NCBI GenBank assembly: GCA_964367865.1
Contig: CAYJBA010000001.1
Location: 1,461-27,335, forward strand
DNA: 25,875 nt
Direction of reading: 5' to 3'
Origin: an uncultured Bacteriovoracaceae bacterium
Lineage (GTDB): Bacteria; Bdellovibrionota; UBA1018
The notes below the pieces were generated by a model. That model saw only the letters and a list, made by a program, of their open reading frames with translations. It was not told the origin of the DNA and searched no databases. Both the position numbers and the translations under genes were made by a program. Positions 1,231 through 3,032 of the stretch are shown one piece after another (position 1 is the stretch's first letter; every line of letters begins with the position of its first letter).

Positions 1231-1259
1231 ATCGTAGCCAATCCGGACTCTCATGTCAA
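1231..1259 (-). promoter_or_regulatory. sigma70 promoter of the FecR-domain gene
   Basis: TTGACA (1259-1254), N17, TACGAT (1236-1231), 10 nt before ATG 1220. Confidence 0.7.
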
Positions 1260-1279: not shown

Positions 1280-1309
1280 TTGACAATACCTCGTTATTTC
1301 ATCTACGAT
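1280..1309 (+). promoter_or_regulatory. sigma70 promoter, divergent from the FecR-gene promoter
   Basis: TTGACA (1280-1285), N18, TACGAT (1304-1309). Confidence 0.6.
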
Positions 1310-1392
1310 TTAAGAATGAGAATCCACGGATTTCGGATTCTCAAAACAGCTGCAATGGACCACCAGCGCGGCATTTGTACAAGGAGGTTTAG

Positions 1393-1446
1393 ATGTTTCT
1401 CTCCTTCGATCCTCATCACACCGCTGATTATTTTCCGTGGGGCTAG
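1393..1446 (+). CDS. Putative 17-aa small ORF or leader peptide MFLSFDPHHTADYFPWG
   Basis: AAGGAGGT (1381-1388), TTAG, ATG (1393), in-frame TAG at 1444-1446. Translated by hand; absent from the ORF track. Confidence 0.45.
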   Translation: MFLSFDPHHTADYFPWG

Positions 1447-1509
1447 CCCCCCAATCATTACCTTAAAAATTTAATCTATATCCGTCACAAATTATTCAAG
1501 GAGGAATAT

Positions 1510-1878
1510 ATGAAATATTTATTGGGCCTTTTGGCCATGGTACTTACTTTAACTTCTCAATCGTCCTACGCACTTCTAGAAAATTCGATTGCCGCTACGC
1601 GGCAAGATAGGGTAGCAGATCAAGCCAGAGAGTACGTTATTCAAATTAAAGGCACGCTGGGTTGCGAAACTACCCAGGGATTAACTCAAAGAAAACTCAC
1701 TCAGACGAACTCTATTTGCATATTGAAAATTCGAGATCGTGAGTCAGGAAAGATCTTCGGCTTAATTGATGCCAAAGCTGCAATGGCGCTTTATAACGCT
1801 GGAAGTTACAATGTCTTGATCGAAGGCATTCTTCGAGACGTAAATACGATCCAAATCAAGACTGCTCAAAATCTTTAA
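1510..1878 (+). CDS. Secreted hypothetical protein (122 aa)
   Basis: Strong SD AAGGAGG just upstream; classical signal peptide MKYLLGLLAMVLTLTSQSSYA. Confidence 0.8.
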   Translation: MKYLLGLLAMVLTLTSQSSYALLENSIAATRQDRVADQAREYVIQIKGTLGCETTQGLTQRKLTQTNSICILKIRDRESGKIFGLIDAKAAMALYNAGSYNVLIEGILRDVNTIQIKTAQNL

Positions 1879-2693: not shown

Positions 2694-3032
2694 ATGGCCA
2701 CCCCGGCTATTAAATTAGTGCCAGTATCCGAACCTGAAAGCAAAAATCCGCCTACACAAGAAGAGGCCGAAGCAAAGCTTCATCAAGAGGGCTACGAGTC
2801 TTATTGTTGGCACGACGTATCAGGAACCCTATACCCGAGACATCAACACGCCTATGATGAATGCCTTTGGATTTTAAAGGGTGAGATTACGTTTGAAACA
2901 AAAGAAGCTGCTTTCGCGCTCAAACCAGGCGACCGGCTTTATATGCCAGCAGGAACCGCACATTCTGCAAAAGTAACTTCGAAGCAGGGGGTAACTTATT
3001 TAGTGGGACAGAAAACGCCGGAACAGCCCTAA
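2694..3032 (+). CDS. Cupin-domain protein
   Basis: Two cupin motifs: YPRHQHAYDECLWILKGEITF and LKPGDRLYMPAGTAHSA. Confidence 0.9.
   Translation: MATPAIKLVPVSEPESKNPPTQEEAEAKLHQEGYESYCWHDVSGTLYPRHQHAYDECLWILKGEITFETKEAAFALKPGDRLYMPAGTAHSAKVTSKQGVTYLVGQKTPEQP

Follow-up and report, generated by a model that had tools for sequence, protein, structure and literature searches.

The DNA analyzed here is a 25,875-nucleotide stretch (the window) from an uncultured Bacteriovoracaceae bacterium, and our subject is a 17-codon open reading frame (ORF) on its forward strand, located in the leader of a gene for a small secreted protein. We propose, with a probability that we put at roughly 0.55, that this ORF is translated and acts in cis as the leader ORF of the downstream gene, which is predicted to encode a periplasmic OB-fold protein. 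A preliminary description of the region had suggested a regulatory leader peptide, a microprotein that is gated by a thermometer or a small RNA and might bind metal, or a dual-function RNA. The comparative evidence favors the first of these, whereas metal binding and a dual-function RNA gained no support. Judged by that comparison, the 17-codon mini-gene appears to be real and to be a member of a small leader-ORF family, of which we found no earlier description in the literature.

The leader ORF (1393–1446, forward strand) has its own initiation signals, consisting of the Shine-Dalgarno (SD) sequence AAGGAGG at 1381–1387, five intervening nucleotides (TTTAG, 1388–1392) and an ATG at 1393. The SD sequence lies in the longer context GUACAAGGAGGU (1377–1388), in which CAAGGAGG begins at position 1380. 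Seventeen codons, counting the ATG, encode the peptide MFLSFDPHHTADYFPWG and are followed by a TAG stop codon (1444–1446). A pyrimidine tract within the ORF (1401–1414) contains CTCCTT (1401–1406), which complements AAGGAG at 1381–1386, and TCCTC (1410–1414). The single tryptophan (Trp) codon, TGG at 1438–1440, is two codons ahead of the stop, and the stop itself occupies the center of the perfect palindrome GGGGCTAGCCCC (1439–1450), which is predicted to fold into the GC hairpin GGGGCUAGCCCC with a free energy of −7.6 kcal/mol. Further downstream, the main gene has the SD sequence CAAGGAGGA (1497–1505) ahead of its ATG at 1510. The ORF with its SD, the anti-SD complement and the palindromic stop had all been described previously, and every one of these sequence details proved correct on reading. 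The same is true of the claim that CAAGGAGG also precedes the main gene: it is found at 1497–1504, and the context of this SD is kept across homologs, with (TT)CAAGGAGGA recurring in many of them.

The window belongs to a 2.7-Mb metagenome-assembled genome (G000) of 405 contigs, with a G+C content of 46% and an estimated completeness of 83%. The AAGGAGG motif occurs 256 times in this genome, where about 300 copies are predicted from composition. At 41 of the 256 sites an ATG follows within 3–10 nucleotides, and 16 of these 41 starts head ORFs of fewer than 60 codons. Within this one genome, then, an SD followed by an ATG and a short ORF is not beyond chance, and the significance of the element can come only from recurrence in related genomes. 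The complete leader architecture is present once in the genome, tied to the main gene. The 16 short ORFs are one argument for supposing that the element has no function, either because it is a chance ORF that arose at an SD-like motif or because the real product is a 52-codon leaderless frame starting at ATG 1316. We regard this explanation as highly improbable, since its first form is at odds with the enrichment across genomes and with the peptide and hairpin features shared among the loci, both described below.

We located the starts of genes homologous to the main gene, read their upstream regions, and extended the survey to metagenome contigs by way of a conserved FliG_C-like neighbor. Ten homologous loci, all with leaders of approximately 150–240 nucleotides, contain, at the corresponding position, a short ORF of 8–35 codons that is headed by an SD and an ATG. 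These loci span at least six genera in addition to metagenome contigs, which contributed L044, L058 and L075. Apart from the window ORF, the predicted peptides are MASLRFWG (L058), MKYLQQCFTNSHLWG (L016, ending in HLWG), MKTSPTSPLRFKGRWQLSWRG (L044), MAFLAIGPLFLTVTHRHRYWRA (L075), the 14-residue MKTFTLPLHRWWRR (L023), MKTFTLPHQRQQILWWRF (L026), MITLHSGFSTLSSLGYRP (L020) and MTQHSFQTALVTDLPQVLPEMLPAIPAPF (L028), each followed by a stop codon; the tenth locus, L039, has a 35-codon ORF whose counterpart in its genus-mate L027 is approximately 33 codons long. We then applied a strict filter (strong SD plus ATG, heading 8–70 codons) to 29 leaders and to 300 dinucleotide shuffles. Six of the 29 leaders passed, compared to an expectation of 0.36 and a maximum of three in any of the 300 shuffles. 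Moreover, of 19 SD-like motifs that the leaders contain, 9 have an ATG 3–10 nucleotides downstream, whereas 7.4% would be expected (P = 3e-6).

The leader peptides have similar C-terminal ends. In seven of the ten, Trp is one of the final three residues, compared with a background frequency of 2.1% (P = 2e-10), and the signal persists when the peptides are counted by lineage (6/9; P = 7e-9, or about 1e-8). The Trp-bearing ends are PWG, FWG, LWG, WRG, WRA, WWRR and WWRF, in every case immediately before the stop. Two Trp codons are present in L023 and L026, where they are in tandem, and in L044, where they are separate; the window ORF has one. At three loci (the window, L058 and L016) the stop codon falls in the loop of a GGGGC...GCCCC hairpin, with the TAG of L058 inside GGGGCTAGGCCCC and the TGA of L016 inside GGGGCTGACCGCCCC (GGGGC-TGACC-GCCCC). 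A CCUC or CUCC tract is found within the first ten or so codons of all ten leader ORFs. An order-wide search with the pattern SD-ATG-N-TGGGGCTRR was set aside as too loose: most of its matches are ordinary gene starts (CTGGGGCTGG, encoding Leu-Gly-Leu), and the window match is the only relevant one.

Conservation of the frame in relatives can be followed in two same-genus pairs. In genus g3 (L023 and L026), the SD, the ATG and the first seven codons are nearly unchanged, with one mismatch in 35 nucleotides. The frame and the WWR motif of this pair are kept across 3- and 12-nucleotide indels, and conserved Pro and Arg codons carry synonymous changes. The pair from genus g18 (L039 and L027) likewise retains its 33–35-codon ORF, with synonymous changes and in-frame indels. 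Such coding constraint, together with the conserved aromatic or Trp motif at the C-terminus, would also be expected of a free micropeptide that acts in trans, for example a peptide with a Trp-Gly end that serves in signaling or protein binding, and that is co-transcribed with the OB-fold protein. Leader peptides that act in trans do exist, as illustrated by peTrpL (PMC7298713). We nevertheless consider a micropeptide of this kind very unlikely here: the peptides range from 8 to 35 residues with just one to three positions in common, they have no export signal, and the ORF is lost at many homologous loci while always occurring in the leader of one gene family. A more specific proposal, that the HH-x-x-D residues of the window peptide bind metal, was rejected because the other leader peptides do not share them.

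The leader ORF is probably inside the transcript of the main gene, because both a promoter and a 5′ stem-loop are conserved in position across the homologs. The predicted promoter (1280–1309, forward strand) has TTGACA at 1280–1285, an 18-nucleotide spacer and TACGAT at 1304–1309, matching the consensus at 10 of 12 positions, and it is the sole promoter-like site on this strand. Transcription from it should begin near 1316, giving a leader of approximately 194 nucleotides, in agreement with the previously claimed length of about 195. Sites of the form TTGACA-N18-(T/C)ACnnT are found 48–243 nucleotides upstream of the homologous genes at most related loci, and L058, which has a 219-nucleotide leader, carries the exact hexamers and spacing of the window (TTGACA-18-TACGAT). 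Just after the predicted start, the arms UGAGAAUCC and GGAUUCUCA form a 9-bp stem-loop (1317–1343, forward strand; −12.1 kcal/mol, z = −2.5). Stem-loops of different sequence occupy this position in most homologous leaders (mean z = −2.1; 17 of 31 below −1.5). A stem-loop that is conserved in position and varied in sequence is, by its pattern, the probable signature of an mRNA-stabilizing hairpin.

A 5′ stem-loop raises the possibility that the SD and mini-ORF serve as an mRNA stabilizer, in which a ribosome loaded or paused near the 5′ part of the transcript, together with the stem-loop, would shield an abundant envelope-protein mRNA from 5′-end-dependent decay and no regulatory signal would be involved. 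Near-consensus promoters, 5′ stem-loops and strong SD sequences typify mRNAs that are both stable and abundant, for example ompA and those with the STAB-SD leaders of Bacillus, and this leader combines a near-consensus promoter with a strong main SD and the stem-loop seen in most homologous leaders. The presence of the module in some genera only, and the freedom of most of the peptide sequence to vary, would also fit. On the other hand, an anti-SD tract that occludes the SD opposes constitutive ribosome loading, and plain shielding needs neither the Trp codon nor the hairpin stop, unless they pause the ribosome. We therefore judge the stabilizer explanation to be quite unlikely.

The same promoter bears on the leaderless frame introduced above, given that ATG 1316 lies six nucleotides past the −10 box. 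Of 41 consensus-like promoters identified across the genome, eight are followed by a long ORF whose start is 5–10 nucleotides past the −10 box, which suggests that leaderless or near-leaderless mRNAs are common in this organism and is in line with an earlier remark that many of its operon-first genes have no SD. Against the 52-codon frame, it has no counterpart in the homologous leaders and no Pfam match, and its start is inside the 9-bp stem-loop. Two other frames overlap the leader: a 73-residue frame on the forward strand (1253–1474) has no Pfam match and no counterpart in the homologs, and a 51-residue frame on the reverse strand (1303–1458) has no counterpart in the homologous leaders.

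We used secondary-structure prediction to examine how the leader might fold. The preliminary description had proposed that the SD and ATG fold into one hairpin with the complementary tract, and this SD:anti-SD hairpin is indeed the minimum-energy fold, at −6.9 kcal/mol at 37°C and about −13 kcal/mol at 10°C, although it is no better than the folds of composition-matched shuffles. The upstream SD is predicted to be paired (P ≥ 0.89) in eight of the ten leader-ORF loci, and shuffling the next 33 nucleotides at these loci leaves nearly the same SD pairing because the region is rich in pyrimidines. Thus, in these models the occlusion of the SD appears to reflect the abundance of C and U and not a hairpin tuned for the purpose. 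A specially evolved SD hairpin was dropped as unsupported against such shuffles, and the gating by temperature or by a small RNA that the preliminary description proposed is neither favored nor disfavored. The second-best hairpin (−5.1 kcal/mol) places AAGGAG in a 6-nucleotide loop. Folding of the whole leader is not unusual (z = −0.87), and the main SD is predicted to be paired with probabilities of 0.33–0.79 and with partners that differ by locus.

The 3′ part of the leader has little that resembles an intrinsic terminator. Because the GC hairpin at 1439–1450 is followed by an A-rich stretch rather than a U-tract, its sequence is not that of a classical terminator, and we found no terminator-like sites on the forward strand between 1000 and 2300. 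The A-rich tract also speaks against the dual-function or small RNA proposed earlier, as does an Rfam search of the leader, which gave no match at either threshold. The spacer between the leader ORF and the main SD (1447–1496, forward strand) is instead C-rich and G-poor, with 14 C and one G in the 48 nucleotides at 1447–1494. Among 60-nucleotide windows of the genome, those at the spacer rank in the top ~2–4% for C minus G and in the lowest ~0.6% for G content. The spacer has more C than G at nine of the ten leader-ORF loci.

These features suggest how a translated leader ORF could act on the main gene. Base pairing between the SD of the leader ORF and the pyrimidine tract would keep initiation low, and this pairing would be strong at groundwater temperature. 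A ribosome that does translate the ORF would dwell either on the Trp codon or on the stop within the hairpin, and its occupancy would set the amount of full-length, translatable mRNA that reaches the main gene. Occupancy could work through the access of Rho to the C-rich, G-poor spacer, through protection of the mRNA, or through both. By analogy only, we infer that a Rho-dependent step resembling that of tna or mgtA is the preferred sub-mechanism, because the composition of the spacer is the kind preferred by Rho.

Several observations weigh against a translated, cis-acting leader ORF. Approximately two-thirds of the homologous leaders, including that of L021 from the same genus as L020, have no leader ORF; these leaders are mostly shorter, so the module would be a dispensable, optional insert. 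Most positions of the leader peptide vary. In L014, L015 and L017, UGGGGC is likewise found together with a stop, there with no usable start codon. The Trp codon, UGG, shares bases with the UGGGGC of the hairpin, so that RNA-level constraint could mimic peptide conservation, and part of the Trp conservation may be of this kind. The contigs closest to the window in public data, L011 (from Hainich groundwater) and L012, match it at 100% identity over the region and, having no substitutions there, are uninformative on constraint of the window ORF. When the 33 nucleotides downstream of the window SD are shuffled, 64% of the shuffles pair with it at least as well. The C-over-G skew of the spacer is confined to the top 2–4% of genome windows and is absent from L058. 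Finally, we found no terminator/antiterminator or main-SD-masking fold shared among the homologous leaders, which leaves the proposed downstream effect without structural support.

The main gene (1510–1878, forward strand) encodes a 122-residue secreted protein with a signal peptide, a predicted OB-fold barrel and two conserved Cys residues. The protein contains no Trp and belongs to no Pfam family. The core of its AlphaFold model has a predicted local distance difference test score (pLDDT) above 90, and its best fold matches are OB-fold proteins, all of them weak (E ~0.01). Protein-atlas and fold searches indicated a generic OB fold and nothing more specific, and a search of 5.8 billion proteins returned only the protein's own cluster. 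A profile search recovered homologs, at 25–38% identity, from 34 of the order's 116 genomes and from hardly any others in the phylum. The two Cys residues are invariant, and the main gene has a conserved set of neighbors: an 87-residue protein with a DKxKYLxI motif (1941–2204), a stand-alone 144-residue FliG_C-domain protein on the reverse strand (2201–2635) and a small cupin (2694–3032). The FliG_C protein is 47–53% identical across the order, and its best metagenome matches reach 62%. These neighbors hint at a link between the main gene and motility.

On the other side of the intergenic region, a divergent twin promoter, TTGACA-17-TACGAT (1231–1259, reverse strand), serves a FecR-domain gene (231–1220) whose ATG at 1220 is 10 nucleotides past its −10 box. 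The pattern TTGACA-N17/18-TACGAT has two copies in the whole 2.7-Mb assembly, and these are the two back-to-back promoters of this region. Sites of the broader form TTGACA-N17-19-TAnnnT are under-represented, with 41 found against ~90 expected.

The motility-linked neighborhood is relevant to a different explanation, in which the upstream AAGGAGG is mainly a candidate site for the translational repressor CsrA (RsmA), which would have a partner site on the main SD, and the ORF is minor or is the means through which CsrA acts, as at E. coli idlP-iraD. The genome has a flagellar flgK-flgL-csrA-fliW cluster, its flagellin leaders have classic hairpins with GGA in the loop, and the FliG_C-like neighbor of the main gene is conserved. 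The context GUACAAGGAGGU matches the published CsrA consensus from systematic evolution of ligands by exponential enrichment (SELEX), RUACARGGAUGU, at 11 of 12 positions. ACA(N)GGAGG stands ahead of six of the ten leader ORFs, with GUACAAGGAGGU identical in L028 and similar sequences in L020, L075, L044 and L039. Likewise, the main SD context UUCAAGGAGGA recurs in homologs beyond the apparent need of SD function. In genus g28 (L030–L037), where the homologs have no SD-led leader ORF, a covarying NCUC-AGGAU-GAGN hairpin lies upstream of the main SD, approximately 45–60 nucleotides before the main start; its stems vary (ACUC/GAGU, GUUC/GAAC and GCUC/GAGC) around an invariant AGGA(U/C) loop, so that in sequence it looks like a CsrA-type site whose loop contains GGA.

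In the window itself, the case for CsrA is mixed. The leader has two copies of CAAGGAGG, one of them on the main SD, and the alternative −5.1 kcal/mol hairpin that presents AAGGAG in its loop would favor binding; this is only the second-best fold, and the lowest-energy fold has GGA in the stem. The two sites are 117 nucleotides apart, beyond the usual spacing for one dimer bridging two sites. More importantly, a CsrA site needs no ATG at SD spacing, no open frame, no Trp and no hairpin stop, all of which are enriched in these leaders. We consider CsrA unlikely as the principal explanation, if less so than the other alternatives discussed here, and it may be a second control layer rather than a true alternative to the leader ORF.

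The flagellin genes of this genome show a small-scale arrangement of their own. The leaders of the two genes on contig C92, near 6418 and 7679 (L051 and L049), contain a GAGC-ACGGA(U/A)-GCUC hairpin and a 4-codon mini-ORF (MKGG or MNGG, then a stop) after CAAGGAGGG or CCAGGAGGG. The codons of this mini-ORF contain the real flagellin SD.

Returning to the translated leader ORF, the Trp codon invites a further step. We did not find the tryptophan synthase alpha chain TrpA (PF00290) in the host genome, which is 83% complete, and across the family we detected it in only 4 of 38 high-quality genomes, suggesting widespread Trp auxotrophy. Because most genomes of the family have no tryptophan synthase, we speculate that the Trp codon could report charged tRNA-Trp and, through it, nutrient supply from prey. 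In its fullest form, the leader ORF would be a sensor of tRNA-Trp or free Trp that is uncoupled from Trp biosynthesis: a pause at the Trp codon beside the hairpin-embedded stop would, in predatory-type bacteria that are for the most part Trp auxotrophs, report prey amino-acid supply and switch a motility-linked OB-fold protein on or off, with CsrA-FliW as a possible second input at the same SD. This extension is a long shot. If it is true, an amino-acid-sensing leader has been recruited to a gene outside biosynthesis; if the Trp codon is not a sensor, the locus is a neat further case of a leader ORF and of modest general interest. Few bacterial regulatory devices are as poorly annotated as short leader ORFs, and almost nothing is known of post-transcriptional control in uncultured Bdellovibrionota. 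The family offers clear landmarks open to mutation, namely its SD, anti-SD tract, Trp codon and hairpin-embedded stop.

We compared the leader with known regulatory systems. RNA thermometers resemble it in that a pyrimidine tract further downstream pairs with the SD and with some of the start codon, and that the predicted stability doubles from 37°C to 10°C. In contrast to thermometers, the occluded SD is that of the leader ORF and not that of the regulated gene, there is no ROSE or fourU signature and no Rfam match, and the hairpin does not surpass shuffled sequences. CsrA-controlled leaders such as idlP-iraD and the flagellin gene hag (one hairpin site plus one SD site) have in common with the window two CA(A)GGAGG elements, one of which is on the main SD, as well as csrA-fliW in the genome and a motility-linked neighborhood. 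The window departs from them in the 117-nucleotide separation of its candidate sites and in the GGA within the stem of the best fold, and it shows no translational coupling between the leader ORF and the main start, which are separated by a 63-nucleotide gap.

The Trp attenuators of E. coli (TrpL) and Sinorhizobium meliloti (peTrpL) are similar in having a short ORF, mostly of 8–22 codons, with its own SD in a 5′ leader and with Trp codons two to three codons ahead of the stop; L023 and L026 even have tandem Trp residues followed by Arg, as in TrpL. They differ in that the gene downstream here encodes a periplasmic OB-fold protein without Trp instead of a trp biosynthetic enzyme, that most members, including the window, have a single Trp codon, and that we found no U-tract terminator, no alternative 2:3 and 3:4 pairing and no match to the Rfam Trp_leader family. 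A classical Trp attenuator was rejected on these grounds, failing on multiple Trp codons, on the terminator and antiterminator, and on a target in amino-acid synthesis or uptake.

Arrest-peptide leaders, such as tnaC, secM, ermCL and speFL, control downstream genes by means of a stalled ribosome, which in the tna operon blocks Rho. The leader ORFs described here do not have the W12-D16-P24 spacing of TnaC or the GIRAGP spacing of SecM, and stalling on them is only proposed. They also differ from the erm and cat leaders, because it is the leader ORF's own SD that is predicted to be occluded while occlusion of the main SD is inconsistent. With the arrest-peptide leaders they share a C-rich, G-poor spacer after the ORF that is free of an intrinsic terminator, as well as a short ORF with conserved aromatic or basic residues near the C-terminus and a key residue close to the stop codon.

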